Assembly: GCA_902779035.1 (NCBI GenBank)
Contig: CACZAH010000005.1
Location: forward strand, 1-58,354
Source: an uncultured Erysipelotrichaceae bacterium
GTDB lineage: Bacteria; Bacillota_I; Bacilli_A; RF39; UBA660
DNA: 58,354 bases
Reading direction: 5' to 3'
The notes under the pieces were generated by a model, which was not told the origin of the DNA, did not search any database, and worked only from the letters and a program-made list of their open reading frames with translations. The translations under genes were made by a program, and so were the position numbers. Below are positions 6,201-50,200 of the stretch, one piece after another; position 1 is the first letter of the stretch; the number at the start of each line of letters is the position of its first letter.

Positions 6201-6277
6201 TTAACTTCATCAAAAAATAACGAATGATTTGGATTCTTTTTAACATTTTCACCAAACTTTTTTACAAAAGATTTCAC
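3269..6277 (-). CDS. Stand-alone NRPS-like protein, adenylation-thiolation-condensation (A-T-C)
   Basis: A core YTSGTTGNPKG, YHSGDL, KINGNRIEPAEIE, SGKLDRKALP; PCP DDFYELGGDSL; C-domain HHSLFDG; GTG start after GGAGG. Confidence 0.9.
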   Translation of the reverse strand: MKSFVKKFGENVKKNPNHSLFFDEVNTKGISYAKIDEVSGKIYNYLTSIGVGREDFVLINLPRGVQVVMAMVGVWKAGAAFTVVEDNYAPDRIEFIRKDCNCKAEINSDTWDSIMKLDSLDGYVESDLHDAAFAIYTSGTTGNPKGVLHEYGNILRSVESVKISETEALVKKNEHGALVAPLNFIASTIFIMYVLYYGAEIDKAKLYIVSYSTLKNPVALKKFMLEKTISLTFLTPSYVRMLKGTTGPFLKTLIVGSEPANNVYLKGVKLCNTYMMSESAFIVSMFKIDKSYETCPIGTKTLPYLNIKLLDDEGNEVKNGETGELCFDNPYFRGYINLEEETKKALKDGIYHSGDLAKFDANGKLVLLGRNNDMIKINGNRIEPAEIEAAVKQVLNVSFVVVRGFNEANQSYICAYYKDDVEFNLDDVRSELLKRLPYYMLPAYFMKIDSIPLKASGKLDRKALPVPDTKDFKTNYVEPTNDIEKAICNAFSKVLKLDRVGINDDFYELGGDSLGAIEVIVESKLEGLNVAQIFRGRNAKEIAKIYSESIVSDDGVSPEIKNEESMKLEHKLTAEQLYMVDYQLYTPKSTMFNLFTMLKADKNLYNAKDLAKAMYNTIKNFKALLTTFHFNDDGEIVQKYTPEVLEKIRVEHISEFDFNNIKDTLVMPFKLTNSRLYRCRVFETEKNVYAFFDVHHSLFDGTSFKVLMEAMVKSYMGIEIDKDYYYYILDKREKEMNTTLYQEAEKYFTDTYENIEWSTAPKIDQESRENEIGDILSTLNIKDEEMSLIEKKFKTSRNEFFITVAIIAISIYNKKNNIKISWIYNGRDDIYSMSSVGLLFRELPVALKLSDKRTVRELYQSVHKQVQEGIKYSCYPYEELDANVVAEDGACLLYQQDIRDGGDLSDMNIEMIDVRQNQAAAQDLLDIQILDGSDGLEIMMDYASSRYKNESMVKFKDIFIKVTQLLIHHTTQDDITVLDIKKKLDTNNSIFRKVMSIFSMKR

Positions 6278-8419: not shown

Positions 8420-9294
8420 CTACTCAGTAGGAAGTACTGATTTATCTAGGATGATGACAGGACGAACAACAGGATTTATTAAAGCAACACTCGCATTTTT
8501 AAATTCACCATATTCCTCTACTACTATAATACCAGAATCCCCTGACAATGAGTTGGTCCAGTACGTATAATTTCTATTATAAATCCATTCATATTTTGGC
8601 AATTGTCTTATTTCTATTTCACAACTACCGCATGGTTTAACTTCTTTACTTTCAATTTCTATTTCATCTTGTAATATCAATCTTGCTTCACTTGCCGCTG
8701 GGGCTTGTGCTGTTTTCCAAGCATCAACTGTTGTTTTTACATATGAAGTAGAATAAACACTACTTTCTGAATGATATTGCATTCCTCCATAGCCATTTCT
8801 GTCATATGTTTGTGCTCCTGTACCATTTGAGTATGTTTGTACTTCTTCATATGATAATGGTTCTGCTTTTAACATTGTTACTGTTGATTCTGTTGCATCT
8901 GAATCTTTAATTACATAATAATTTATATTATTGTATGTAACTTGATCTCCTACGTATAGTTTTCTACATTTCTTCCTGTAACTGTACAACCTGCAAGATA
9001 TACACTTGAATCAGTGTTGATTTGTGTTGTTGAACACTCTACTTTATTTCCTGAGTATTCAATTGTTAGTTGTGATACTTCTGTTGGAAATTTACCTGTA
9101 TCAAGTAAATAACCTGCAATTGCTAGTTCAATACTTCTTCCATATGCATCAATACTTCGCCTGTCTGCAGAAATACGTGCTTTTCTAATTATATTCATAA
9201 CAAGTGGAGTAACTATTAATGCAATTATTGCCATAATTACTAATACTCCTATTAACTCGATTAATGTAAATGCATTTCTTTTACTATTTGCCAT
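8420..9294 (-). pseudogene. Frameshifted prepilin-type (class III signal) protein with C-terminal DUF6273/C-type-lectin-like domain
   Basis: ORFs 8950-9303 (KRNA|FTLIELI) and 8420-8989 align end to end with intact paralog 41607-42500; about 13 codons are missing at ~8950, causing a frameshift. Confidence 0.8.
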
Positions 9295-9376
9295 ATTTAT
9301 CATTCCTTTCCATTCAATCTTTTTAAAATTTTCTTTAAAGCATTACACACGCTAGTCACTAATGTGCTCTAATTAT

Positions 9377-9485
9377 ATCATGGACTTGTTTTTAGTGTAT
9401 ACCATGATTACACTTTTTATACATTTATTATTCCTATCTCGCCTCACCTTACCTTCTAATACTAGAGTCAACCCCTATTTTGAAA
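9377..9485 (-). promoter_or_regulatory. Conserved pilin-gene leader and collapsed promoter (TTGACT -35 kept, spacer and -10 missing)
   Basis: Colinear similarity to 42524-42652; the 21 nt T15AGTAAA present there is absent here. Confidence 0.65.
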
Positions 9486-24125: not shown

Positions 24126-25559
24126 TTACTTTTTTAAGTCACTTGCATTAATTTTTCCATCACCATTTACATCAGCAAGTAATTTTTGTGTTGTATCAAG
24201 TTCAATAATCTTAGCAATATATTTACTTAACATATTAGCATCAATCATGTTAACTTTATCATCCATATTTATATCTCCTACTTTGAACTTAGATGCAATA
24301 GCTTTAGCCAAACTATTAGCATCTTTATTATCAACAGCAGAATCTCCATTATAATCAGCATAATTTAACTGATCAATTGTAAGTTCTGTTTTCTTTAAAA
24401 TATAGTTTTCAATAATAGTAACATCTTCATGAGTAACTTTTCCATCTAAATTAACATCACCCTTCTGATACTTAGTATTACTGCCTACTTTATTTCTAAG
24501 AACAGCTACATCATTAATATCTATAACTCCATCTAAATTAACATCACATAAATTTAATTGTACTTTATTAGCAACAGTCACACCATTAAACATGTTTTGT
24601 AAGAGTGTTATATCATCATTATTAATTTTACCATCTAAGTTAATATCTCCAACTTGGTAATAATCAGATATAGTTTTAGCAAGTAAATCAACGTCAGTTA
24701 AATCAATAACTCCATCTTCATTCATATCAGAATACTTAAGTTGCTCTTTAGTTAATTTAATTTGATTAGCTACATATTTTTTTAGTAAAATTACATCATT
24801 TACATCAATTACATTATCATTATTAATATCTCCTAATGTATTGACTTTCATAATCTCACTATTTAGATACTCTTCTAATTCATATAAATCATTATTATCT
24901 ACTATACCATTATTATTATAATCTGCAACATTAATCTGTACTGTATTTAAAGAGGCCTGTTTCTTAAGATATTTACTAAGTAATTCTAAATCAGTTGTAT
25001 TAACTACACCATCTAAATTAATATCTCCTCTTTTATAATTAGCATATTTCGCATCAACAACAGTCTCCTTAACACATACATTGTTCTTATCAGTATATTC
25101 TTTAGGACATACAATAGATACTCCTATCTTAGATAAATACTCACTACCACTATTATGACCAGTTACATAAAGTCGAATATTTTCAGCATCTCCTACACTA
25201 AGTATTCCATCACTATTTACATCAGCTGCCATTAACTGAATTTCCGATAAATCTACAGTTTTAGCTAAATATTTATTAAGTAAGTCTAAATCATTGTTGT
25301 CTACTACCCCATCTAAATTAACATCTCCTAATATGTTAGCAGTAGTTGTCTCACTTTTTATACATTTATTATCACTTAATGTATAGCTATTATCATCACA
25401 ATAATAAAAACTAGTTGTAATAGAATTTCCCATTAAACTTTTCATACCTGTATTTCTTGCAATTAACTCATATATCATAAATGCAATTAATAATACTATA
25501 AACGACACGACTATTATTAGTGTAACCTTATTATTCTTTTTAAACGTCAATATAATCAC
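24126..25559 (-). CDS. Membrane-anchored protein with six tandem type I dockerin domains
   Basis: 12 GDxNxDG.V...D-type Ca-binding loops in six pairs; N-terminal TM. Confidence 0.85.
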   Translation of the reverse strand: MIILTFKKNNKVTLIIVVSFIVLLIAFMIYELIARNTGMKSLMGNSITTSFYYCDDNSYTLSDNKCIKSETTTANILGDVNLDGVVDNNDLDLLNKYLAKTVDLSEIQLMAADVNSDGILSVGDAENIRLYVTGHNSGSEYLSKIGVSIVCPKEYTDKNNVCVKETVVDAKYANYKRGDINLDGVVNTTDLELLSKYLKKQASLNTVQINVADYNNNGIVDNNDLYELEEYLNSEIMKVNTLGDINNDNVIDVNDVILLKKYVANQIKLTKEQLKYSDMNEDGVIDLTDVDLLAKTISDYYQVGDINLDGKINNDDITLLQNMFNGVTVANKVQLNLCDVNLDGVIDINDVAVLRNKVGSNTKYQKGDVNLDGKVTHEDVTIIENYILKKTELTIDQLNYADYNGDSAVDNKDANSLAKAIASKFKVGDINMDDKVNMIDANMLSKYIAKIIELDTTQKLLADVNGDGKINASDLKK

Positions 25560-36984: not shown

Positions 36985-39900
36985 TTAATTAACTAATGTA
37001 TAATTCATATCTACAATCTTTTTATCTAATATTGAATAAAGGTAAGTATAAACTTTCTTACCAGTAATACGCTCTATATAATTCTTATATCCTTCTAACT
37101 GTTTAATATAAGCAGTATCACTTGTATTCTTTAACTTATAATCAATTATATTAATATAGTTATCATACTCAAGCATTAAGTCAATAAAACCATGATATTC
37201 TATATTACCTAATACATATTTAAACTCATACTCTTTATATATCTTACAATTTAAATTATGCATTATATCACTATCTAAGAAGGCCTTAATAAACTCGATA
37301 TAATTCTTATCAATAATATTATAGTTAGGATTTTTAAAATCAATCATCTCAAGTATATAGTGTATCTTAGTTCCTAAATCAATATTCTTCTGTTCTTTCT
37401 TACTAATAACCTCTTTATTACTTTTAGAAAAATGTTTACTACCTAACTCATTATATGTAATATCTAACTCTTTATCTTTAATATAATCGTCAGTTTCAGT
37501 TATATATTTACTTATATCAGGATTAATTATATCTTTATAATTAGAATCAATATCAACATCTACATTCTTAATAGTACCCTCTATTACACTATATATAGAG
37601 TTAAGTATATCTAAAAAAGACATGTATTTAAGTTTAACAATATCATTAAATGGTTCTTCATTATACTTAAGACTAGTTACTATAATCATTTTCTCTCTAG
37701 CTCTAGTAAGTCCTACATAAAATAGTCTAATTTTTTCCGATATCTCTTCTTTTATATAATTATCACGAACTAACTCTTTAACAAATGTATCATTAATACT
37801 ATCAGTAAATATAGGTAGTATCATACCATACTTATCATAATAAAATAGTGTTTCTTTTAAATCTCTAATATTAAACTTTTTATGCATTCCTGTGTAGTAG
37901 CACACCGGAAACTCTAACCCTTTAGATTTATGAATATTCATAATCTTAACAGAATCACCACTATCAGTATTAAGAGAATACTTTATCTCAGTCTTATCTA
38001 TATTATTTAAATAATTTATAAACTCATTGTTACTATAACCTAAGTTATCTAAATTACGAGCTATATCTGATAAATAATAGATTCTAACTATAGTATCATT
38101 AATACTTCCTACTTTAATAGTTTTATTATATATATCAAATACTTCTACTACTCTATTTAATAATTCAATATTATTTATATTATCTAACTCATAACTAATA
38201 GCCTGACACTTTTTAAATATAGTACTTTCAAATATCTTATTATCTTTAATAGTATTAAATATCTCATTATCACTAATAGAAAATAAATAACTTCTAGCTA
38301 TACTTACATAATAATATCTAAACTCTCTATCGTATTTTTTATTCTTAATCTTATTTATTAGATTTAATATATTTTTAATAAGAATAATATCCGTACCATC
38401 AGATAGTACATTATCCATATACATAACAAGAGGTATATTTAAATACTCAAATATCTGTTTATACTTTAAAAACTCAGTATTCCTATCCATAATAATACAT
38501 ATATCACTATAAGTAATATCACGCATCTTAAAAGTCTTCTTATCCATTACTTGATATTTATTATCTATCTTATTCTTAATATCACGAGCAGTTATAAATA
38601 TTTCTGCTTCTTCTTTAGTATAAGACTTATCCTCACTCTCTTCATAATTAAGTATAGTTAAGTAATTACTAGGATCTATATTATAAGCAGTATTACCAAA
38701 TACCATTTGATGAGACTTAATATAATCTGCTCCACCTATATCTAAACTCATTACTTTATTAAATATATCATTAATCGCATCTAATACTTCTTTACGGGAT
38801 CTAAAATTCTTAAGTAAATCAATCTTATATCCTCCATTATTATCCTGATAGTTAATATACTTCTCTTTAAATATATTAGGATTAGCATTTCTAAAACGAT
38901 ATATAGATTGTTTAATATCCCCTACCATATATACATTATTATTGCTTATTAGATTAATAAAAGTTTCCTGTAAGTCACTAGTATCCTGATACTCATCTAC
39001 CATAATCTCGTTATAGTAGTTCTTTAACTCTTCTCTAATACTAGGATTATCACGAACTACTTTTATTGCCATCTTAGCTATATCTATAAATTCATAAGAA
39101 TTATTATCACTTTTAAATTTATTAATTCTACTATCTAACTTATTAATAATCTCAATTATAATACTTGCATAATCTCTAGTATCTAATAACTCATCTAAGT
39201 TATAACTACATAATCTTTTAATCTCTTTAATTAAATCACTAATATTATTCTTATACTTCTTAGTTAAATCATCAGCTTTAGAAAGCCTAGGTAATTTAAT
39301 ATCAATATTATTATTAATATCTTCTATAGTCTTAGACATAAGTAATGGATTTAAAACTTCAGTAATCTTATCATAATAAGTTCCATCACAGTAACTCATT
39401 AAATAATTTAAATTATACTTAATCTCTTTAATCTTATTTAATAGTAATTCTAAGTAATCATTTTTTAATATATTAATATTAGTATCATGATAATACTCAC
39501 TAATATAATTATCTAAATACTCTTTCTTATCAATCTTTAAATCTAAGCTATTACTAATCTTAATAATAGAATTGATTAAATCTTTATCATCCTTAAAACA
39601 ATAATCATTAACTAATTTAGTAAATAATTCATTAGGATTACTATAATACTCATTAAATATATCATTCATAATCTCTAACTTCTTAATATTAATAATAGAA
39701 GAATCAATAATACTTATATTCTTACTAATATTAAGTAAATAACTATACTTCTTAACTATATATAATGAATAAGAATCAAAAGTAGTAATAAAAGATGCAT
39801 CAATTAAATCAAGTTGTCTATCTAATTTATTAGATATTATCTTATCCCTAATTCTACCCTTCATCTCTTTAGCAGCCTCTTTAGTAAAAGTTAGAATAAG

Positions 39901-40050
39901 TAACTTATCTATATCAACACCATCATTTAATTTACGTATAACTCTTTCCGATAATACAGCAGTCTTACCTGATCCAGCTCCCGCACTAACTATAATAGAA
40001 GTCTTATCTTTATCAATAGCAAGTTGTTGGTCTAAAGTAAACTTAGGCAT
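36985..40050 (-). CDS. addA: UvrD-type helicase/nuclease AddA
   Basis: SAGAGSGKT, VDEYQD, VGDIKQSIYRFR, IHKSKGLEF, YVGLTRA, C-terminal IIDYK nuclease; ATG 40050 after AGGAGG. Confidence 0.88.
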   Translation of the reverse strand: MPKFTLDQQLAIDKDKTSIIVSAGAGSGKTAVLSERVIRKLNDGVDIDKLLILTFTKEAAKEMKGRIRDKIISNKLDRQLDLIDASFITTFDSYSLYIVKKYSYLLNISKNISIIDSSIINIKKLEIMNDIFNEYYSNPNELFTKLVNDYCFKDDKDLINSIIKISNSLDLKIDKKEYLDNYISEYYHDTNINILKNDYLELLLNKIKEIKYNLNYLMSYCDGTYYDKITEVLNPLLMSKTIEDINNNIDIKLPRLSKADDLTKKYKNNISDLIKEIKRLCSYNLDELLDTRDYASIIIEIINKLDSRINKFKSDNNSYEFIDIAKMAIKVVRDNPSIREELKNYYNEIMVDEYQDTSDLQETFINLISNNNVYMVGDIKQSIYRFRNANPNIFKEKYINYQDNNGGYKIDLLKNFRSRKEVLDAINDIFNKVMSLDIGGADYIKSHQMVFGNTAYNIDPSNYLTILNYEESEDKSYTKEEAEIFITARDIKNKIDNKYQVMDKKTFKMRDITYSDICIIMDRNTEFLKYKQIFEYLNIPLVMYMDNVLSDGTDIILIKNILNLINKIKNKKYDREFRYYYVSIARSYLFSISDNEIFNTIKDNKIFESTIFKKCQAISYELDNINNIELLNRVVEVFDIYNKTIKVGSINDTIVRIYYLSDIARNLDNLGYSNNEFINYLNNIDKTEIKYSLNTDSGDSVKIMNIHKSKGLEFPVCYYTGMHKKFNIRDLKETLFYYDKYGMILPIFTDSINDTFVKELVRDNYIKEEISEKIRLFYVGLTRAREKMIIVTSLKYNEEPFNDIVKLKYMSFLDILNSIYSVIEGTIKNVDVDIDSNYKDIINPDISKYITETDDYIKDKELDITYNELGSKHFSKSNKEVISKKEQKNIDLGTKIHYILEMIDFKNPNYNIIDKNYIEFIKAFLDSDIMHNLNCKIYKEYEFKYVLGNIEYHGFIDLMLEYDNYINIIDYKLKNTSDTAYIKQLEGYKNYIERITGKKVYTYLYSILDKKIVDMNYTLVN

Positions 40051-40092
40051 ATAACACCTCCTAAACAATGTAATGTAATATAATTATACAAT

Positions 40093-41574
40093 CTTATAAC
40101 CGGACAGTTTTTCATATAGAGCAAAATCGAGGATTTATACCCTCGACTCTTTTCATTGCTTATACGACATTTTTCTGCTAAAATATAAATAGAAAAAAAT
40201 AAAAGAAAGCAGGTTGTCGTATGAATAAAGTATATAATAGTCAAGATGAAATTGCAAGTAATATCGTGGAACTTTTAAAAAAATGTGGAATTTTAAGAAA
40301 AACTTGTGCTTAAGATTATACCTTATATTATTATCGGAATGATTTCAGCTAGTTCTTCTGTTGCTTCTGATATTGCTGCCAAGTTAAAAGGAAGTTTTTC
40401 TTTAGTTCAGCATGATTCCGTTATCAGAAGAATAAAAAGATTTTTTACTAATAAACTTTTTAACCCCTATGATTTTTACGATAAAATCATAAGATTTGTT
40501 ATTTCTAATTATACTATAAAGCATAGTGATAAACGTGTACACATAGTTTTTGACCATATGTTTTCTCACGATAATTACACTGTTTTTATGATTACATTAA
40601 GAGTGGTGAAACTTGTGCATTCCGTTATGGTTTAGATGCTATAAAGGGAAAGATGAGCCTAAAGCATTGGATAAGGGAATGTTAAAAAAAGGAATCTCAT
40701 ATGCGTCATCACTATTTCCAGCTGACTATGACTTAATATTTCTTGCTGATAGATGGTTTAATTCAACTTTACTTCTTGATCATATTGATTCCTTAGGAAG
40801 AACCTATGTTGTTAGACTAAAAGGAAATATAAGGTGTTATGTTTATGATAAAAAAGAGGGGCATAAAATTTGGACAACTACTGGTAATTTATACGCTTAT
40901 GAAAACAAATCAGCATTCTATAATGATATTGAAATTACTAACAAGCAATTTAAAACAAATATCACAGTAAGTAAAAAGAAAGGTGTTAAAGAACCATGGA
41001 TTGTTGCCACAAATTGAGATACTAAAAGAGCTATTAAAGATTATGGTTATCGCTTTGGTGGAATAGAAACAGTATTTAAAAATCAAAAATCTAATGGTTT
41101 TTATTTAGAATCAACGGTTAAAGCTGATATCAAATATTTTGAATCAATGTATACTTTTGTCTATTTTCTGTACTTTTTCTTACAATATATGGAGCAAATT
41201 ATACTAAAAACTCCAAATGTTATAAAAACGTCAAAGTTACTACCCACAAATATATCAATGGAACTAAAACACGAGTTATGTCTTTGTTTAGCATAGGACT
41301 AATGTTATTTAATAAAGCAATAAATTCCCTGAAATACATTCGGATACCTTTCGCACTAAAATTGTACGATACCTAAATACTCACTTATACAATTGATGAA
41401 TGTTTTAAAAATTCAAAATTTGAATTCTTTTTGGCATGTGCATTTTTAAGTGTTACATGCATAATTAATGAAACAAACCGTGAATATCGTCAACTACTGG
41501 ACGAATATATTCACGGTTTTTCCATCATTTATCCCCTAAATTACAACGGTTTTCTAAAACTGTCCGGTTATAAG
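40093..41574 (+). mobile_element. Degenerate IS4-like DDE insertion sequence (~1.48 kb)
   Basis: Perfect 19-bp terminal IRs cttataaccggacagtttt (40093-40111) / aaaactgtccggttataag (41556-41574); no flanking TSD seen. Confidence 0.85.
40221..41376 (+). pseudogene. Transposase pseudogene with multiple frameshifts and a stop
   Basis: Fragments with HIVFD, FLADRWF, EPWIVATN, YGYRFGGIETVFKNQKSNGF (DDE, YREK-like). Confidence 0.85.
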
Positions 41575-41606
41575 TTAATGAGACCTTAATGAGACCAGAG
41601 CCCTGT

Positions 41607-42500
41607 TCATGCCGAGATTTCAGATTTAGAAAGTATTATAACTGGACGAACTTTGCCACCTAAATTGACATCATTGTAGGTCAAACGCCCATCATATACC
41701 ATATACCAAACTCTATTTGATGATCCGTTATATGAACTCATTGTCCAATATTGCAAACCATTATATAACCAATTTGGAACATTCTCACCTTTTGAATAAC
41801 TTGTTTCTGAATTTTTTATATATCCCAAATTTATTAGATCTTCTACCGTTATTAAGCGAACTTCTTCAGTTTCTGGTGCATTAACTACTTTCCAAGCATC
41901 TAATGTAGTTTTAATGTATGAACCATCATATTCGTTACTATTTGAATGATACATCATATTTCCAACTCCACCTCCAATCACATCAGCTCCAGGTGAATAC
42001 TCTATAATTTCATCAGAACTCAATGGCTCTTTTTTTAACAACTTAACATTCAATTGTTTAGAATCACTATTCTCTATTACATAATAATCAACACCATTAT
42101 ATGTTACTTCATCTCCTACTGAATATGTATCATATGTTACAACTTGTAATTTTCCATACTCATAATCACCTGTACTTCTTCCAGCAACAGTACATCCAGT
42201 TAAGTATACAGAGGAATCACTGTTTAACTGTGTAGTTTCACATACTACTTCATTACCACTATATTCAATTGTAAGTTGATCTATTGATGTTGGAAACCTT
42301 CCTGTATCTAGTAAATATGAAGCTATTGCTAGTTCTATAGATCTACCATATGCATCTACACTACGTCTATCTGCAGATATTCTAGCTTTTCTTATTATGT
42401 TCATTACAAGTGGAGTAACTATTAAAGCGATAATTGCCATTATTACTAATACTGCTATTAACTCTATCAGAGTAAAAGCATTTCTTTTTCTTTTAAACAT
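41607..42500 (-). CDS. Prepilin-type N-terminal cleavage protein with C-terminal DUF6273/C-type-lectin-like domain
   Basis: KRNA|FTLIELIAVLVI; C-terminus YWTMS..VWY..VRPVIIL. Confidence 0.85.
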   Translation of the reverse strand: MFKRKRNAFTLIELIAVLVIMAIIALIVTPLVMNIIRKARISADRRSVDAYGRSIELAIASYLLDTGRFPTSIDQLTIEYSGNEVVCETTQLNSDSSVYLTGCTVAGRSTGDYEYGKLQVVTYDTYSVGDEVTYNGVDYYVIENSDSKQLNVKLLKKEPLSSDEIIEYSPGADVIGGGVGNMMYHSNSNEYDGSYIKTTLDAWKVVNAPETEEVRLITVEDLINLGYIKNSETSYSKGENVPNWLYNGLQYWTMSSYNGSSNRVWYMVYDGRLTYNDVNLGGKVRPVIILSKSEISA

Positions 42501-42609
42501 AAATTACCTTCTTTCTTATAATTTCATGGATTCTATTTTTAGTGTATACCATGATTACACTTTTATACACTCTACAATACTATCTTTCATCACCTTACCT
42601 TCTGATATT

Positions 42610-42638
42610 AGTTTACTAAAAAAAAAAAAAAAAGTCAA
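42610..42638 (-). promoter_or_regulatory. Sigma-A promoter with homopolymeric T16 tract forming the spacer
   Basis: Minus strand TTGACT-T15AG (17 bp)-TAAACT; A16 at 42618-42633 on +. Confidence 0.8.
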
Positions 42639-42813
42639 CCCTATTTTGAAAATTTGTTAACTTTTACAATTATCTTACCTAATTGTTATTGACACATGTA
42701 TTATACGTGTTAAAATATTTATTCGGATATGTTTGAATTTCAGATGTTTTCCTTTCGTAAAAACAATTTGGCTTATGAAACAGTGGGTTTTGGTTACGAA
42801 AGGATGTGGTAGT

Positions 42814-42885
42814 ATGACTAAGAGAGAATTACGATTAGTAATAATCATTTTAGTTCTAATTATCATAATAATTTTAAGTAATTAG
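42814..42885 (+). CDS. Putative type I toxin peptide 1 (MTKRELRLVIIILVLIIIIILSN)
   Basis: AAAGGA RBS pairable with upstream tttcctttcgtaa; single TM helix; not in ORF track. Confidence 0.7.
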   Translation: MTKRELRLVIIILVLIIIIILSN

Positions 42886-42997
42886 AAAAAACATCTGAAA
42901 CATTATAAGCCTGTTTCAGATGTCCCCACGTTAGGGAAACGTCTGACAACCACTTCAAACGTATCCTTTTTTATTATATGAAGCATTGCTTCCTATA
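42886..42997 (-). ncRNA. Putative antisense antitoxin RNA 1
   Basis: Convergent promoter TTGCAC-17-TATTAT (~43028-43000); terminator acatctgaaaca/tgtttcagatgt + T tract. Confidence 0.65.
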
Positions 42998-43189
42998 TAC
43001 ATAATATCACAAAAATTAGATTTGTGCAAATAGAACTTGGAAAAAAATATTTAATTTTATTACATTAATTTAGTTGCACCATTCATCTATTTTGTGTTAT
43101 AATGTACCCGGATACGTTTGAAATTCAGATGCTTCCTCCTATTATTATCAGGGGACTTTGGTCTAATCTTAATATATAGGAGGTACAAT

Positions 43190-43285
43190 ATGAAAAATAC
43201 TACCAGAGAAAAATTTCTGTGTGTTTTTATATTTCTATTATTAGTGATAATTATATTACTTGTAATAGTACTTATCAAAAGATAA
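43190..43285 (+). CDS. Putative type I toxin peptide 2 (MKNTTREKFLCVFIFLLLVIIILLVIVLIKR)
   Basis: AGGAGG RBS pairable with upstream cctcctat; single TM helix with basic tail; not in ORF track. Confidence 0.72.
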   Translation: MKNTTREKFLCVFIFLLLVIIILLVIVLIKR

Positions 43286-43407
43286 GCAAAGGCATCTGAT
43301 TCAACTATGTTGTTTCAGATGCCAACCACAAATTTAAATTGAGGAAGCGTCTGATTAACACATCAAACGTATCCTTTTTTTATTATATGAAGCATTGCTT
43401 CCTATAT
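43286..43407 (-). ncRNA. Putative antisense antitoxin RNA 2
   Basis: Near-identical convergent promoter TTGCAC-17-TATTAT (~43438-43410); terminator ggcatctga/tcagatgcc. Confidence 0.65.
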
Positions 43408-43467
43408 ACATAATATCACAAAATTTAGATTTGTGCAAATGAGTATCCAAAAATCCTGAATTTGATT

Positions 43468-43710
43468 TTATATCATTTTATCAATGTTCTTTGGTACTTT
43501 ATCATTTACTACCGCACTAATTATTTTATCTTCTTGCTCTTTAGTTACATTTCTACCTGTTACTTTAGATAATGTTTGTATTACCTCTCGAAGACTACCT
43601 TCATTTTTTAAGTCTGTTTCTTGTAACTTTTTAGCAAGTCCTAAAATAGTTTCCTTATTTACATTAGTTTTCTTTTCTACTCTATCAAAAAATCTATTAG
43701 AAAAAGCCAT
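43468..43710 (-). CDS. spoVIF: Stage VI sporulation protein F
   Basis: FFDRVEKKTNV..LA..LQ..DLKNE..LREVI, VTKEQEDKII. Confidence 0.85.
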   Translation of the reverse strand: MAFSNRFFDRVEKKTNVNKETILGLAKKLQETDLKNEGSLREVIQTLSKVTGRNVTKEQEDKIISAVVNDKVPKNIDKMI

Positions 43711-43746
43711 ATACCCTCCTAAATTAATATATGACTTTTTATTATT

Positions 43747-44649
43747 TTAGTTACTTATTTCTAGTTTTAATATTTTATAATTATCAAGTAATTTATTATA
43801 TATAACTTCATCCTCAGTAGGTTCATAATTTGCTATCATATTGAAATTATTATACTCACCTGTTTTTATAGATTTAAATGCTTTACTAAATAAATCAGCA
43901 GTATCCTTATCATACATAACTTCAATTAAACTAAGTAAACTATTATATGTTCTAGAAGTTAATTCTTCTGGCTCACCAAAATATATAATCTTTTTACCAT
44001 TATCTTCTATCTTATAGAATATTAAATTACCTTTTGCTGATTGTGCATAACCATCACTAACTAACTTATCTTTAAATACTACAAAATCATCAGTATTAAA
44101 ATATACATCAGCTACGCTTCCAAGTTCAAACTTTTTATTAACTTTAAACTTATAGATATTATTCTCTTTATCAGAATATATTTCTATACCATTTCTTTTA
44201 ATATTCATCTTTGTATAATCTAAACTACCCAATATAGATGATATATACCCTTTATCATTGCCATTAACTTGTCCAATTGCATCAGCTACACTATATAATA
44301 ACTTACCTTTTAATAATATATTTTTATCTTTCTTAGGTATTGTATAAGTTAATATATTATTATCTAATGTTCCAACTAAATTATCATTAGTCTCGTCATT
44401 ACTAATATTTATAGTAATTGTATCATCAGTTGTTTTTACATCTAAATTATAATATCTACTAACTGATAAATAGTTCTCATCTTTCTTAATATGTTTAACC
44501 AATTTCTTTAATTTGAAATTAGAATGATTAAAATCAAATATAAGCATAACTATTAGTATTGTAAATAAGAATCCAGATAATCCTGATGATAGGACTAATA
44601 GCTTTCTTCTTAGTCTTTTACTACGCACATTACCAACTCCTATTATCAT
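43747..44649 (-). CDS. Hypothetical membrane-anchored protein
   Basis: N-terminal TM, long ORF. Confidence 0.6.
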   Translation of the reverse strand: MIIGVGNVRSKRLRRKLLVLSSGLSGFLFTILIVMLIFDFNHSNFKLKKLVKHIKKDENYLSVSRYYNLDVKTTDDTITINISNDETNDNLVGTLDNNILTYTIPKKDKNILLKGKLLYSVADAIGQVNGNDKGYISSILGSLDYTKMNIKRNGIEIYSDKENNIYKFKVNKKFELGSVADVYFNTDDFVVFKDKLVSDGYAQSAKGNLIFYKIEDNGKKIIYFGEPEELTSRTYNSLLSLIEVMYDKDTADLFSKAFKSIKTGEYNNFNMIANYEPTEDEVIYNKLLDNYKILKLEISN

Positions 44650-44727
44650 TATATAATAAATTTAAAAAAAATAATAGATAGTTGTTTAAATTTATTAAAA
44701 TTGGTTATAATAATTATAAGGTGAGTT

Positions 44728-45657
44728 ATGAAAAAGAAAGTATTATTAATAATTATTGGTATTATAGTTATAATTGGAAGTGTTAGTGGTGTTTTAGTAA
44801 TAAAACATATTAATTATACTAAGACATATGAGTATAAGTTTACTAAGATCGGTTATAGTAAGGAAGAAGTTAAATTATTAGAAAAGGAATTAAAGAATGA
44901 AGAATTAGATACACTATTAAATAGAAAATACAATAAGAATATAACTAAGTTTATTAAGGAGAAGTATTTTATATTTAACAACTTAGATGAGTATTTAAAG
45001 TATTTAAAAGATAATAAAGATAAAAATTTAACTGATGTTATAGCTATAGTAAACACTAATTCTAATAATGAGTTTTATAGTAATACTAAGAAAACAGATA
45101 TAAGTAAGAATGAACTTATGTTAGTTAATAAATATAACTATTTAACTAGTGATTATAATCCAGATGATTTAGAAGAATTATCTAATGTTTATGCATATGG
45201 TACTAATCAAATGCTAAGGCATGATGCATATAATGCTTTTATTGAGATGTGGAATAAAGCTAGTGAAGATGGATATAAGTTAATAGTTAATTCATCTTAT
45301 AGAAGTTATGAAGAACAAGAGAAGATTTATAATGATTATTCTAGTTGGTATGGGGATAATGATGCAGATAAGAAAGCTGCTCGCCCAGGATATTCAGAAC
45401 ATCAAACAGGTCTTGCTTTAGATATTCAATCATATTGTTCTGAAGAAAAAAAGTTTGATGAATGTCCAGAGTTTACATGGTTATCGAATAATGCATATAA
45501 ATATGGGTTTATTATAAGATATCCTAAAGATTTAGAACATATTACTGGATACAATTATGAATCTTGGCATTATAGATATGTAGGAGTAAAAGCTAGTACT
45601 TATATTCATGATAATAACATTTCTTTTGATGAATATTATGCTTATTTTATAAAATAA
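44728..45657 (+). CDS. M15B D,D-carboxypeptidase (VanY/LdcB-like), membrane-anchored
   Basis: LVNK, SSYRSY, ARPGYSEHQTGLALD, ESWHYRYVG. Confidence 0.9.
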   Translation: MKKKVLLIIIGIIVIIGSVSGVLVIKHINYTKTYEYKFTKIGYSKEEVKLLEKELKNEELDTLLNRKYNKNITKFIKEKYFIFNNLDEYLKYLKDNKDKNLTDVIAIVNTNSNNEFYSNTKKTDISKNELMLVNKYNYLTSDYNPDDLEELSNVYAYGTNQMLRHDAYNAFIEMWNKASEDGYKLIVNSSYRSYEEQEKIYNDYSSWYGDNDADKKAARPGYSEHQTGLALDIQSYCSEEKKFDECPEFTWLSNNAYKYGFIIRYPKDLEHITGYNYESWHYRYVGVKASTYIHDNNISFDEYYAYFIK

Positions 45658-45681
45658 TTAATATCTTACATATAATATAAT

Positions 45682-46269
45682 ATGAAAGATATTAATTTAG
45701 TTATTAATCCAGATGATTATCTAGTATTAGTCAATAAACATAATAAATTATCTAGTACTTATATACCTAGTGATTTAGAATTAATTAATGAACTCTATAG
45801 TGATTCAAAACAGTATTTAAGAAAAAAAGCAAGGAGTGCCTTTGAAAGCATGACTAATGACGCAAAAAAGATAGGTCTTAATATAATAGCAGTATCAACT
45901 TATCGTAGTTATGATTACCAAGATAAATTATTTAATAAATATGTAAAAGAAAAAGGAATAGATTATGCAAGTATGTGTAGTGCGAGATCAGGGCATTCTG
46001 AACACCAATTAGGACTTGCAGTAGATATTGCAAATGATAATTTAGATTATGATAACTTTGATAAAACTAAAGAGTCTAATTGGGTAAAGAACAATGCATA
46101 TAAATATGGATTCATACTAAGGTATCCTTTAGATAAAGTAGATATTACCGGTTATAAGTATGAACCATGGCACTATAGATATATTGATTCAATTAATTTA
46201 GCTAAATATTTATATGATAATAATCTAACTCTAGAAGAGTATAATAAAACTCGAAATAATCTCGAGTAA
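45682..46269 (+). CDS. Second M15B carboxypeptidase (catalytic domain only)
   Basis: STYRSY, SEHQLGLAVD, EPWHYRY; no signal peptide. Confidence 0.88.
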   Translation: MKDINLVINPDDYLVLVNKHNKLSSTYIPSDLELINELYSDSKQYLRKKARSAFESMTNDAKKIGLNIIAVSTYRSYDYQDKLFNKYVKEKGIDYASMCSARSGHSEHQLGLAVDIANDNLDYDNFDKTKESNWVKNNAYKYGFILRYPLDKVDITGYKYEPWHYRYIDSINLAKYLYDNNLTLEEYNKTRNNLE

Positions 46270-46390
46270 TTTTTTATTTGGTACGGACAAATAGTATATC
46301 CGAAACCTTAGGAATAGTTGATAAACAACTAATCACTAAAAAAATAATAACATAATTTTTTAAATTAATAAAGATTAACCTATAAATTTA

Positions 46391-47820
46391 CAGGATAAAA
46401 TCATCCGACTAGGATAAATCGACATAATATAATTGTTTATGGCAAGAATATTGAAATTCTACTGATACAAAGATTTCAATATTTTTTCTATTTCATACTC
46501 ATAATCCATTGCAATACTAAATCTAATATCATTCATACTTAGTTTTGTTTTTTTTTAAATATTTTCAACATAGATAAACAAAATTTTCTTATTATGTTAA
46601 GGTTTTTCTGTGTATTTTCAACAAAACAAGTATTTTTGTCTTCTTGAAATACTGTGTCTAAATAAAAATGCAATTGATTCTCGATACACCACTCATTTCG
46701 TATTCCACTGCTAAGTATTTCAATTTCCTTAGAATCAATATTCGATATAAAGTATCTAGTATCAGTTTTTGTTTCGTTATTTTCTACATAAGTTCTTTTT
46801 GCAATTCCAATCGATTTTAATTTAAGCCATTTTTCCTTGTTAGGTAGCCAATCTATGTCGTTTATAAAAATATATTCTGTTTTTTCAACAGTTCCATGTG
46901 CTTTTTCTACAACTAATTTATAAGATTCTTTTTTTGCTTCATTATATAATTTGTTATCACTAAAATATTCTACAAGATTATTTTCTAATGCCTCCTGATT
47001 ACCTTTAACAGGAGCAATATAGTATCCTTCGTTTCCAGCAATATAATCGATAGTATCTTTTTGAGTGCTTAAAGCATCAAAAGTAACTAAAGTATTTTTA
47101 ACATTTACTCGTTTAAGTAATTCTGGACCAGTTAGTATTTCATTTGTCTTATCACCAATAAATTCAGTAGCTTCACAATTACCGTTTTTTACTGAAACAA
47201 TACTCATTGCGTTCATTTTAGATACTTTACCATTTTTCGATGATTTCCTATCAGAAGAATTGGCTATTTTACCATCCATTGGCTTAATATCTTCAATTAT
47301 TAAATCACCATTTTGATATAATGGTGCATTATTCTTTAAGAAATTATTCATTACCTTTACGCATAACTGCTCTAAGTCAGCAGGTTTTATATATGAAATA
47401 ACTCTTCTTAATGTTGATATAGATGGCATTCCATTATCGAAATATATATGTCTATCAAGCCAGTTAAAATGTTTACACATAAACAAATATATCTCTGTAA
47501 ATCTATTGCAGTTTGCCATCATAGCAAAAATTAATGTAAGAATAATATTTTCTAAAGAGTGCATTATATGTTCTTCGTCTCTTTTATCCACAACATAAAT
47601 AGCATTTGCTTCAATTTCATATATTAATTCACAGCAAACATTAATATTTTCTATTTCATTTTCATTAATTATATATTTATCAGAAATAATACTTGATAAT
47701 TTATCAAGGACTTTAGATTTTCTAGACATTAAGCATACCTTCTTTCAATTTATTTCATGATACTAAAAAAGGATAATATAGCAATATCCTCATTTTCCCT
47801 AGTCAGATGATTTTATCTTG
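46391..47820 (-). mobile_element. ISAs1-family insertion sequence
   Basis: Imperfect 23-bp IRs caggataaaatcatccgactagg / cctagtcagatgattttatcttg; 9-bp TSD ataaattta on both sides. Confidence 0.88.
46459..47729 (-). CDS. ISAs1 transposase, frameshifted in an A9 run near the C-terminus
   Basis: MDGK, KTNEI, VTFDA..TQK, VKGNQ, HG, WCIENQLH..LDTVFQED; reading continues in another frame to 46459. Confidence 0.85.
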
Positions 47821-47821
47821 A

Positions 47822-47873
47822 TAAATTTAGAAAAAAAAGTTGATTTTTAAATTTAGAAAAAAAAGTTGATTTT
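47822..47873. repeat. 26-bp tandem duplication next to the IS end
   Basis: taaatttagaaaaaaaagttgatttt x2, containing a TTGATT -35. Confidence 0.75.
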
Positions 47874-47923
47874 TAAATTAATTATGCTATAATATATCTT
47901 GACTTTGTTTTGGGGGGATATAT

Positions 47924-48460
47924 ATGGACAAAAACAAATTAATAAAAGTTAAAAAAAGATTATTAGCATTAGGATTAGCGAGTGTAATGCTTGGGACTGC
48001 TGGTTGTACTAGCAATAAAGATGAAAATGGTGTTCCTGAAAGATATGATATTCCATCTAAATATTCAAACATAGAAGATTATTATAAATATGTAATGCAA
48101 AATGGTGAAGCTGTAAAATTATATAAAGCAGAAAATGTTTATTTATTATTTGATAAAGAAACATATGATGCAGAAGAATACATCTTTGATACTGTTCTCG
48201 GGAGATATGGTGGCCAATTATATGACTTAGAAAGTGAAGAATTGCTTGTATATTCTGGTGGAATTAGTTACACTTATAATGAAAAATACAATAATTATTT
48301 AAAAGAGAATAATTACCATGTCTGTCTTAAAGATGTAAGTGATTATGTTGAAGGACATGTTGGTAAAGAATATTATTCACTTGATGAAATAAGAGAGTTA
48401 GAACCTCGAATCGCTGAAAGCTTAAAAATAATTAATTCTGCTAAAGTTAAAACAAAATAA
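47924..48460 (+). CDS. Hypothetical lipoprotein
   Basis: Lipobox TAGC. Confidence 0.7.
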   Translation: MDKNKLIKVKKRLLALGLASVMLGTAGCTSNKDENGVPERYDIPSKYSNIEDYYKYVMQNGEAVKLYKAENVYLLFDKETYDAEEYIFDTVLGRYGGQLYDLESEELLVYSGGISYTYNEKYNNYLKENNYHVCLKDVSDYVEGHVGKEYYSLDEIRELEPRIAESLKIINSAKVKTK

Positions 48461-48561
48461 TAATGTTATTATACATAATTATTTATTAATGGGAATACTA
48501 TGTAATGTAGTGCAAGTGTCCATGGATTGACTTTAAATACAATATGTGCTACAATTTAATT

Positions 48562-48669
48562 ACTCAATGACCAAGGGTTATATGAGTCCTGGAGACGCAA
48601 CTTTTAAAAGTTGCGTTATCCGTTTATACTAAAATGAAAAGCCTCTTAATTTGTTTAAGAGACTTTTTT
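48562..48669 (+). ncRNA. Putative structured sRNA convergent with the DUF3800 operon
   Basis: Promoter TTGACT-17-TACAAT (48527-48555), no ORF, hairpins, terminator hairpin + T tract at 48637-48669. Confidence 0.55.
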
Positions 48670-49167
48670 ATATTTATTATATTCTTTTAATACATTTTGT
48701 AGATATCCAGGTTCATCAATTAAATATGAACTTATAATATACATATCATTTTTGTTTCTTTCAAGAATTATTATATAACTATATAAATCATCACTATACA
48801 ATAACTTAGTTCTTTTAGTGTTTTTATATGGAGCAGTCCATATTTTTATTTTGCTACATTCCAAATCATCACAAGTAGGACAATTTAAATAGTTTTTTAT
48901 CATTGGAGCAACATAATTTATAAAATATGCACGTGGTTCTTTCATTCTAATTTTCATACCTAATGTTTTTTGAGTCTTAGTAGTTAAATGAAAAAATCCC
49001 TGCATTCTATTATCTTCAAATGGTGTAGTAAACACTTTAATTTTCATTTCATTTATTTTTAAATCACCATAATATATATTTTTCATAAAATAATCATATA
49101 ATTCGTCATCTGTAGTAGTTTCAGGTAGTGGACCATTTAATCCACATTTGTTTTTAAAGGGTATCAT
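48655..49167 (-). CDS. Hypothetical protein coupled to DUF3800 gene (resembles phage P1 Rlf-type partner)
   Basis: Likely start MIPFKNK overlaps upstream stop; GFFHLTT, YIIILE..MYIISSY. Confidence 0.55.
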   Translation of the reverse strand: MIPFKNKCGLNGPLPETTTDDELYDYFMKNIYYGDLKINEMKIKVFTTPFEDNRMQGFFHLTTKTQKTLGMKIRMKEPRAYFINYVAPMIKNYLNCPTCDDLECSKIKIWTAPYKNTKRTKLLYSDDLYSYIIILERNKNDMYIISSYLIDEPGYLQNVLKEYNKYKKVS

Positions 49168-49855
49168 CTCTTGATCTCCAAATAAATATATTAAATTTCG
49201 TATTACTATAATATGATGAAGTATCGAAATCATTTTGATACCATTTTTTAATTTCATTAATAATATTTAGCTTTACACTATTACCAGAAAGATTCCTATA
49301 ATAATATGATAATGCTCCAATCAAGATATCGTTAATTTGTAATATTGGTGCTTCATAAGATCTAATTGGTTGAACCTTTTTTATAGTTTTTTTATTAGTA
49401 TCTTGCATTTTAATTCTTAAATAATCAAGCATTACTTGATGATAATAATATGAATTAGTATCTTTTATATCAGGATAAATATTATATGAATTTCCTGGAA
49501 TAATAATATATTTTAACATTTCATAATATGTCTTGTGATAGAATTCATTTTCAGTTTGATTATATTTTTCATGGTCTAATTTTGTTTTATCAATAACAAT
49601 AACTCTAAATTTTAAATCATCATTATTAAAAAAATAATTAATAATATCTAAATATAATTTTTCGGTTTTTTTATCAATTTTATTCCATTTTAATTCTATT
49701 TTATTAGAAATATTATAATTTTCCTTTAAATGTTCTATATATTCATTTACCTTTTTTACTTTAATCTTTGGACAATAAACTGCTCCAATTAACATATATT
49801 TGCTGTCATTACTTGCTAGATGGCAACTTTCATCACAATAAACACTGTATTCCAT
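49154..49855 (-). CDS. DUF3800 domain protein (RNase H-like fold)
   Basis: VYCDESCHL, ELKW, LQINDILIGA. Confidence 0.85.
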   Translation of the reverse strand: MEYSVYCDESCHLASNDSKYMLIGAVYCPKIKVKKVNEYIEHLKENYNISNKIELKWNKIDKKTEKLYLDIINYFFNNDDLKFRVIVIDKTKLDHEKYNQTENEFYHKTYYEMLKYIIIPGNSYNIYPDIKDTNSYYYHQVMLDYLRIKMQDTNKKTIKKVQPIRSYEAPILQINDILIGALSYYYRNLSGNSVKLNIINEIKKWYQNDFDTSSYYSNTKFNIFIWRSRDDTL

Positions 49856-49920
49856 ATGAATCCTCCTTTTAATTAATTATTATATCACTAATACTCGATA
49901 ATTTATTAACATTTCTTAAA

Positions 49921-50200
49921 TTATCTTTCAAAATCATCTTTTTCTTTGCTTAAATCTAAATTTTCAATGTCATCATCATCTAAAACATTATCATTATACA
50001 TATCATTAACAACATCAATGTATTTATCATCTTTATCATACCAACTATGAAGTTTATCATGTAAGAAAGATATTAACTTACTAAATTTATCCTTCCAATA
50101 ATCCAGTGTATTCTTTAAATCATTTATTTTAGATTTTAAAAATGATATTTCATTATCTTTTTCTTTAATTGTATCATTTAAAGTTTTAACTCTTAAAGTT
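49921..50200 (-). pseudogene. C-terminal coiled-coil remnant, possibly of a mobilization protein
   Basis: Start-less frame TLRVKTLNDTIKEKDNEI...SKEKDDFER*. Confidence 0.35.

Follow-up and report, generated by a model that had tools for sequence, protein, structure and literature searches.

Why does a gene for a pilin-like protein carry a run of 16 T residues exactly where the spacer of its promoter would be expected? The question arises from a 58,354-nucleotide (nt) stretch of DNA from an uncultured Erysipelotrichaceae bacterium (contig CACZAH010000005.1; the window, below, is this whole stretch), in which the run, T16 when read on the minus strand, belongs to a putative promoter 109 nt upstream of a gene for a 297-amino-acid (aa) prepilin-type protein with a lectin-like head. 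Our comparison with related genomes suggests that T16 is probably the slipped-strand contingency spacer of this lectin-headed pilin-like gene. It thereby supports the reading of an earlier note on the same DNA, in which the site was taken for a phase-variable promoter. The elements concerned are the following.

42639 to 42660, minus strand: conserved motif of the promoter, TTAACAAATTT...GGG, immediately before the -35 hexamer.
42633 to 42638, minus strand: -35 hexamer TTGACT, agreeing with TTGACA at five of six positions; TTGnnn edges the repeat in 30 of 30 parsed promoters, by construction.
42618 to 42633, minus strand: T16 homopolymer (A16 on the plus strand); the homologous sites in relatives hold T6 to T19 or TA-dinucleotide tracts.
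42610 to 42615, minus strand: -10 hexamer TAAACT, identical in L026, in L044 and in the upstream promoter of L053 (numbering explained below).
41607 to 42500, minus strand: gene for the 297-aa prepilin-type protein with a C-type-lectin-like (DUF6273/Lcl_C-like) head, the junction KRNA/FTLIE and a long N-terminal helix.

The arrangement on the minus strand is exactly the one that had been described in the earlier note. Read 5' to 3', TTGACT (42638-42633) is followed by T16 (42633-42618), AG (42617-42616) and TAAACT (42615-42610). The first T of the run is also the last base of the -35 hexamer, and the spacer, T15 plus AG, hence measures 17 nt, the optimal length for sigma-70/sigma-A promoters. 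The run is indeed the longest one, as had been noticed: A16 on the plus strand (42618-42633) is the sole A/T run above 9 in 58,354 nt, where one run of 9 and nine of 8 also occur, while base composition predicts 0.012 runs of at least 16 for the whole window. Moreover, no other site on either strand of the window combines TTGAC with a T run of at least 7 within 3 nt. T16 is uninterrupted and lies well within the range for slippage (a mononucleotide run of about 9 or more); uninterrupted runs of such length are intrinsically unstable.

The encoded protein belongs to a large family. Among 3,024 candidates, 1,862 cluster representatives were recognised as homologues at E-values (E) of 0.001 or less, the best 120 of which are 56-100% identical across 93-100% of the query. 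One protein cluster match, P0001, is a 100%-identical protein from another assembly. A scan of species-representative genomes gave 58 loci out of 109 candidate stretches (numbered L0xx here), and 57 of these are confined to just three uncultured genomes, namely CADCIZ01 ('Erysipelotrichaceae bacterium RUG14702', 19 loci), CAMJTE01 (12) and CAMKGA01 (26), the latter two labelled 'Bacillales'. The remaining locus, L058 from Cellvibrionaceae (36% identity over 72 residues), is an unrelated pilin and was excluded from all counts. Judged from sequence identity, the window organism is a close relative of the three family genomes: the start of addA in the window is 87.5% identical to DNA beside L034, and the identity of spoVIF to L024 amounts to 87%. 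The region upstream of the pilin gene (window 43031-42593) can be aligned across the tract with L006 (2398-2841) at 79-86% identity.

Approximately half of the paralogues share one promoter architecture, consisting of an often present TTTAACAAATTT-like motif, (C/G)TTGnnn, a simple repeat, G, GA or AG, TAnAnT, 3-9 nt and (C)A(T/G/A)AAGGTAA. It was found in the window and in 29 promoters of the related loci, with a repeat of either T6 to T19 or a TA-dinucleotide tract of 6-22 nt. The window promoter fits this frame base for base, and its nearest analogues by alignment are L006, L030 and the upstream promoter of L053. Other paralogues have TAGACT, TATACT, TATAAT or TAGAAT as the -10 hexamer, at equal distance from the conserved start of the leader. 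Variants of TTTAACAAATTT with GG(T/C) precede TTG in the window and in L002, L008, L009, L011, L015 and L037, and the window motif at 42639-42660 might act as an UP-like element or bind a regulator. The TTG-anchored pattern misses L006 (leader GGCAAGG, -10 TACAAT) and L054 (-35 TTAATA), both of which were read by eye. A looser pattern in which the -35 is TT[G/A]nnn gave 32 matches on both strands of the 57 loci, against 0-6 in 20 shuffles, and 30 of the 32 have a prepilin motif within the next 450 nt.

The repeats are also concentrated at these promoters. In 325,654 nt of related loci, 18 of 30 repeats of at least 10 nt (A/T runs or TA repeats) lie within 120 nt before the start of a pilin-like gene, although such zones make up 6,476 nt (2%) of the sequence. 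Three of the other 12 (L006, L016 and L043) mark similar promoters located further upstream or before another pilin-like gene, and for repeats of at least 13 nt the proportion at such promoters reaches 15 of 15. The two repeat chemistries are distributed unevenly among the genomes. CAMKGA01 has poly-T, both short (T6 in L015, L033 and L040; T8 in L008 and L028; T9 in L044; T10 in L018) and long (T16 in L041; T17 in L032; T18 in L046; T19 in L026). CADCIZ01 and CAMJTE01 mostly have a TA-dinucleotide tract of 6 to 22 nt, with poly-T in L006 (T14), L030 (T8) and the upstream promoter of L053 (T6). The two hexamers chosen in the earlier note are thus likely to be real, since the same elements recur in 29 paralogue promoters of the three related genomes.

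An invariant tract would have argued against phase variation, and the tract is not invariant across relatives: at both the paralogue and the species level we found T6 to T19, TA tracts of 6-22 nt and spacers of 6-23 nt. The predicted spacers of the 30 promoters measure 6, 7 (two), 8 (two), 9 (five), 10, 11, 13 (three), 15 (six), 17 (three), 18, 19 (three), 20 and 23 nt. Within the subclass of the window promoter, the T run counts 16 in the window, 14 in L006, 8 in L030 and 6 upstream of L053, and it is deleted in a second paralogue of the window. Length also differs between otherwise similar copies, both among paralogues and between the three related genomes (the rows of L033 and L040 were excluded from this comparison of flanks because a downstream AT stretch had been picked). 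For instance, L008 and L032 of the same genome have T8 and T17 between flanks identical at 52/61 and 53/62 positions, and L018 and L028 have T10 and T8 (46/48 and 51/63). The TA tracts of L002 and L037, from different genomes, measure 17 and 13 nt (53/62 and 58/61), and L034 and L029 have 15 and 23 nt (43/63 upstream and 59/60 downstream). The window and L006 have T16 and T14 (45/62 and 38/63).

The predicted product of the gene has features of a type IV pilin. Its N-terminus, MFKRKRNA/FTLIELIAVLVIMAIIA, is a class III signal with a short basic leader, A at -1, F at +1, E at +5 and a hydrophobic helix; the prepilin N-methylation motif PF07963 is matched at E 3.3e-7 (30.1 bits against a cut-off of 21.2), and E13 is shared by all 30 aligned sequences. 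The AlphaFold2 model, built with 30 homologues (mean predicted local distance difference test score 83.5), has the long N-terminal helix of pilins (residues 11-66) and a beta-rich head with strands 85-92, 98-105 and others. When this predicted structure was compared with the PDB by Foldseek, a C-type-lectin-like fold was recovered: the matches include the C-terminal domain of the Legionella adhesin Lcl (8q4e_A; probability 1.00, template modelling score by target 0.64), the immunoglobulin A (IgA) peptidase of Thomasclavelia ramosa (9qa6; E 5.5e-4) and many C-type lectin domains (E 0.04-0.2). Among the 30 aligned homologues, which are 60-69% identical to the window protein, 22 match DUF6273 (PF19789; best E 7.8e-6) and seven match Lcl_C (PF07603). 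The nearest cluster in the ESM Atlas is a 'DUF6273/Prokaryotic N-terminal methylation motif domain-containing protein', and the structure matches there include DUF6273 clusters. The pilin-like adhesin of the earlier note thus receives support from PF07963 and, for the head, from the model, the Foldseek matches and the profile matches of homologues, and it seems a reasonable label for the predicted protein.

These data allow a mechanism to be proposed. The tract, its position in a conserved promoter and leader frame, the enrichment of repeats at such promoters and the length differences among copies are all observed. In the proposed scheme, T16 would be the spacer of a sigma-A-type promoter of a stand-alone type IV pilin-like gene with a lectin-like head. 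Slipped-strand mispairing during replication, presumed to occur at high frequency, would add units to the homopolymer or remove them, and the distance between -35 and -10 would shift by single bases. A promoter with 17 nt, as in the window allele, would fire from a start at about 42603, one with 16 or 18 nt would be weaker, and one further off would be silent. By the 17-nt rule for sigma-70/sigma-A promoters, on which this assignment rests, the window allele should be ON. As the paralogues would switch independently, each cell might express a random, heritable and reversible subset of lectin-headed pilins, which we infer to be assembled into pili and to bind ligands, and the population would show a shifting subset.

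Several points weigh against this interpretation and have to be set beside it. The window hexamers match the consensus at 9 of 12 positions, and such matches were equally common in shuffled sequence in a promoter scan (23 promoter-like sites in the 2.5 kilobases (kb) around the tract against 17.9 +/- 4.4); because hexamer matches alone do no better than shuffles, support for the promoter comes from the relatives and not from the window. The parsing pattern applied to these relatives itself required TTG, TAnAnT and GTAA, and the conservation of these elements is therefore partly by construction. Only four of the 30 spacers measure 16-18 nt (window, L028, L041 and L032), and none of those in the 15 TA-type promoters does (7-15, 19 and 23 nt), which implies either that the assembled consensus shows almost every copy in the OFF state, or that the -35 of the TA class is misplaced, or that the effect of length is graded. 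L019 and L052, from two genomes, have flanks identical at 60/60 positions on each side and identical tracts, indicating either a lack of variation or one DNA binned twice. Differences between paralogues whose flanks have diverged by about 5-30% are a sign of instability over evolutionary time and not of high-frequency switching. Homopolymer lengths in assemblies can moreover be wrong by at least one base. As for the protein, it has no match of its own to DUF6273 or Lcl_C at E of 0.01 or less; since its homologues do match, membership is assigned by homology and not directly. Finally, none of the 44 open reading frames (ORFs) scanned in the window encodes pilus machinery.

Length could also matter without a switch. 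It seems unlikely, but the tract might act as a rheostat, by setting how far or in what phase the TTTAACAAATTT-like element (UP-like or bound by an activator) stands from the core promoter, or by altering the curvature of the DNA, with graded output and without TTGACT being a functional -35. The motif conserved just upstream of TTG in many paralogues would suit such a role, and the 26 of 30 parsed spacers outside 16-18 nt are odd if 17 nt is the sole active state; a T-tract rheostat beside the -35 is described for Helicobacter pylori sabA in an excerpt of PMC4081817. However, the repeat always abuts TTGnnn on one side and lies 1-2 nt from TAnAnT on the other, and the window allele gives exactly 17 nt. 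We consider it improbable that the tract has no role in switching at all and is stable AT-rich filler or a leftover terminator tail, drifting slowly and neutrally among paralogues. This explanation could draw on a genome of about 26% guanine plus cytosine, on the identical tracts of L019 and L052 and, in a further point against a contingency spacer, on L041, L044 and L046, where a significant hairpin (z -3.2, -3.2 and -2.3) stands before the T run as in an intrinsic terminator, and where the run may double as a terminator tail. No such hairpin precedes the T run of L032 (z 0.43). For the window itself a terminator tail was ruled out, as a scan of 41300-43800 gave no terminator-like site and no significant hairpin was found before the tract (fold z -1.44; longer piece z -0.43). 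Filler would also have to account for a run expected only 0.012 times in the window, for the placing of all 15 long repeats at family promoters and for two repeat chemistries in one spacer position, and long mononucleotide runs are in general unstable.

Two further readings concern the tract itself. A16 might be the upstream A-tract of a strong divergent promoter on the plus strand (42689-42716), which drives the gene for a small hydrophobic peptide (42814-42885). This promoter has a TG and agrees with the consensus at 11 of 12 positions, and the A-tract occupies the zone 56-71 nt before its -35, yet a second copy of the module (43031-43440) lacks a tract at the matching place, and pilin promoters with other upstream neighbours (a tRNA-like sequence in L026, a gene end in L041) do carry tracts, so that we regard this reading as very improbable. 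An artefact of sequencing or assembly, by which the run or its length would be unreal, is conceivable because long homopolymers are error-prone, but it is extremely improbable: the sequence on either side of the tract can be aligned with L006 (window 43031-42593, L006 2398-2841), and independent assemblies carry T14 to T19 at homologous sites, even though the exact length may still be off by at least one base.

A contingency spacer of a sigma-A-type promoter hence remains our preferred reading of T16, and the hairpins mentioned above provide a separate observation on how such promoters are built. In L041 (2920-2953), L044 (2928-2953) and L046 (2910-2950), a hairpin ACGCAA...TTGCGT, whose 3' arm is the '-35' TTGCGT, has an A run before it and the long T run after it, so that a bidirectional terminator overlaps the repeat promoter. 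The poly-T promoters may have arisen from such overlapping terminators. In L053 (2692-2925), two promoters stand in tandem. The upstream copy is of the window type (T6, spacer of 7 nt); after it come about 190 nt that resemble the leader and a terminator-like hairpin with T7, and between these and the pilin-like gene lies a TA-type promoter. It may be that the conserved leader exists as a short transcript of its own.

In the window, the leader spans 42501-42603 and contains three further elements.

42593 to 42603, minus strand: predicted transcription start (about A 42603, 7 nt past the -10) and conserved 5' end of the leader, AGAAGGTAAGG.
42541 to 42571, minus strand: stem-loop GUGUAUA...UAUACAC.
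42506 to 42513, minus strand: ribosome-binding site AAGAAGGT before the ATG at 42500, unpaired in the leader fold.

The motif (C)A(T/G/A)AAGGTAA occurs 3-9 nt after the -10 in all parsed promoters, as required by the pattern, and it is also invariant in five of five long-leader promoters in alignments not constrained by the pattern. The minimum free energy of the leader fold is -16.3 kcal/mol (z -2.29), and three of 200 shuffles fold equally well. The stem-loop stretch is nearly identical in both paralogues of the window. Known riboswitches and small RNAs were ruled out by Rfam, since the gathering scan of the whole window gave only one transfer RNA and a permissive scan of 42400-43500 gave five matches (E 3.2-4.9), all far under the gathering scores. 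An upstream reading frame of 11 codons after the Shine-Dalgarno-like leader start was rejected as well, because it is not conserved in the second paralogue or in L053. The conserved transcript start AGAAGGTAAGGTGA (42593-42603 in the window, and in relatives) resembles a Shine-Dalgarno sequence at the extreme 5' end, a layout reminiscent of the 5' messenger RNA stabilisers of Bacillus. A 5' hairpin forms in TA-type relatives, where AAGGTAAG pairs with a TACCTT further downstream.

The second paralogue of the window seems to have decayed.

8420 to 9303, minus strand: second paralogue in two frames of 117 aa and 189 aa, broken in the variable linker, with an N-terminus nearly identical to that of the 297-aa protein.
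9451 to 9471, minus strand: promoter remnant in which TTGACT (9466-9471) is joined almost directly to the leader start.

Upstream of it, TTGACT and the sequence preceding this hexamer are kept, as are the leader start AGAAGGTAAGGTGA and, in nearly identical form, a stretch of the leader, and there is neither a repeat tract nor a -10 hexamer. It is therefore a probable pseudogene (8420-9303), in which promoter and reading frame both appear to be lost.

The surroundings of the pilin-like gene differ among the related genomes. In RUG14702, a 48%-identical paralogue with a TA-type promoter stands directly upstream of addA (L034 3001-5139 against window 39000-42500), and in CAMKGA01 the VanY gene and the ORF of 300 aa are followed by a paralogue whose promoter has no repeat (L017 1303-3900 against window 43757-46251). 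The chromosomal slot is thus conserved and its occupant is not, which suggests that cassettes are replaced or converted at a fixed chromosomal site.

Upstream of the promoter (42700-43450) we found two tandem modules about 409 nt apart, with direct repeats at 42935-43031 and 43343-43440. Each contains a small and very hydrophobic peptide gene with a ribosome-binding site on the plus strand (42814-42885, 23 aa; 43190-43285, 31 aa), and a convergent promoter-like site and hairpins on the minus strand; the motifs CATCTGAA and CAAACGTATCC are repeated between the two transcripts. In their layout the modules resemble type I toxin-antitoxin loci of the Fst/par kind. Pfam gave nothing below E 0.9 for the two peptides, and Rfam had no match to the modules. 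The same peptide module precedes pilin-like genes in L006 and L011. On the other side, a degenerate IS4-like insertion sequence (IS) element (40094-41589; DDE_Tnp_1 fragments in broken frames) begins less than 40 nt past the stop of the pilin gene. Copies that are 71-85% identical begin no more than 25-40 nt beyond the end of the protein match in L020 (4013-5498) and L021 (4048-5554), and lie further downstream of a pilin-like gene in L047 (4997-5700) and L023 (1860-2376). It appears from these positions that either the IS targets the ends of pilin genes, or gene and IS move together.

A few other features of the window describe the organism. SpoIIE, SpoIIID, SpoVIF, LepA, a penicillin-binding protein and an AddA-like helicase are among the products of its ORFs, a gene content that suggests the chromosome of a spore-former. 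A fibre-degrading gut or rumen habitat would be in keeping with a protein of 477 aa that has six dockerin type I repeats (24126-25559; E 4.9e-60). At 3269-6277, a single-module protein resembling a nonribosomal peptide synthetase (AMP-binding, carrier and condensation domains) adjoins a MatE transporter and a SpoIIE-type phosphatase. The guanine-cytosine skew, for the most part about -0.2 to -0.4 along the window, comes near zero (-0.19 to +0.11) at 40-50 kb. Genes on both strands and IS elements (the degenerate one at 40094-41589 and an intact-looking transposase at 46539-47729) occur at 40001-50000. This stretch looks rearranged or acquired.

Contingency promoters driven by repeats are textbook knowledge in small-genome pathogens such as Mycoplasma, Neisseria, Haemophilus, Helicobacter and Campylobacter. 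In Neisseria meningitidis porA and opc, for instance, a homopolymer within or beside the core promoter modulates expression; unlike the family described here, these are G/C tracts at single loci for Gram-negative outer-membrane proteins. The tract of the vlp genes in Mycoplasma hyorhinis reportedly sits between -35 and -10. Each vlp member has a poly-A tract in its promoter, whose insertions and deletions turn the gene ON or OFF (PMC10502178, in excerpt). According to the same excerpt, vlp is a multigene family of surface proteins with an A/T homopolymer in the promoter of each separate transcription unit; in this it resembles the present case, for which a combinatorial repertoire like that of vlp is proposed. 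However, the vlp products are lipoproteins, while the predicted products of the window family are prepilin-type with a lectin-like head, and their host, with SpoIIE, SpoIIID and SpoVIF in the window, is a walled Firmicute that forms spores. The TA-type promoters of L002, L029 and others are closer to Vmm of Mycoplasma mycoides, where insertions and deletions of promoter dinucleotides control transcription (also excerpted from PMC10502178), although Vmm is a single lipoprotein gene.

Another parallel involves pilin genes. In hifA/hifB of Haemophilus influenzae, (TA)9-11 sets the spacing between -10 and -35, and some hifA copies have A17 or A12 instead (portion of PMC2651432 on these promoters). 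The repeat in the spacer of a pilin gene and the interchange of homopolymer and TA among paralogues, as given in that portion of PMC2651432, match the poly-T and TA promoters reported here. The hif genes nevertheless belong to a Gram-negative pathogen and encode chaperone-usher fimbriae; they form a divergent pair and occupy one to four loci, whereas the related genomes here have 12-26 stand-alone type IV pilin-like genes each. The lectin-like head has a history of its own. Its fold is common to phage receptor-binding proteins, the Legionella adhesin Lcl and the T. ramosa IgA peptidase, and homologues of the window protein match the corresponding profiles. In phages, receptor-binding DUF6273 domains are described as C-type-lectin-like targets of diversity-generating retroelements (PMC10743442, in excerpt). 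The fold thus seems to have been used repeatedly for variable ligand binding. The phage domains differ from the present family, in which the head is fused to a prepilin N-terminus and variation, if any, would come from the choice of paralogue and not from retroelement mutagenesis.

In searches of open-access full text, none of the papers listed appeared, by title or abstract, to describe a repeat-driven contingency promoter for spore-forming commensal Firmicutes or for their type IV pilin families, and none of those on DUF6273 was, by title, on pilins. The mechanism is of a known kind, and the gene family and the lineage appear to be new for it. As a tentative generalisation, which may or may not hold, an uncultured, spore-forming Erysipelotrichaceae-like lineage of gut or rumen might use combinatorial, repeat-driven phase variation on dozens of lectin-headed type IV pilin genes, with poly-T and TA chemistries in one spacer and with cassettes often flanked by IS and toxin-antitoxin-like modules that possibly aid their spread. 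If true, this would be the counterpart of the Mycoplasma vlp and Vmm systems in a walled commensal Firmicute. Erysipelotrichia and Mollicutes are related, and if this kinship holds, the repeat-promoter strategy might predate the mycoplasmas. The size of the metagenomic family (1,862 clusters) implies that such behaviour could be common in the field, though unseen in culture. If confirmed, the family would also supply natural promoters in a graded series of spacer lengths, ready for use, and stochastic variation of lectin-like pilus subunits would bear on how these bacteria meet changing glycan surfaces, host antibodies and phages in the gut or rumen.

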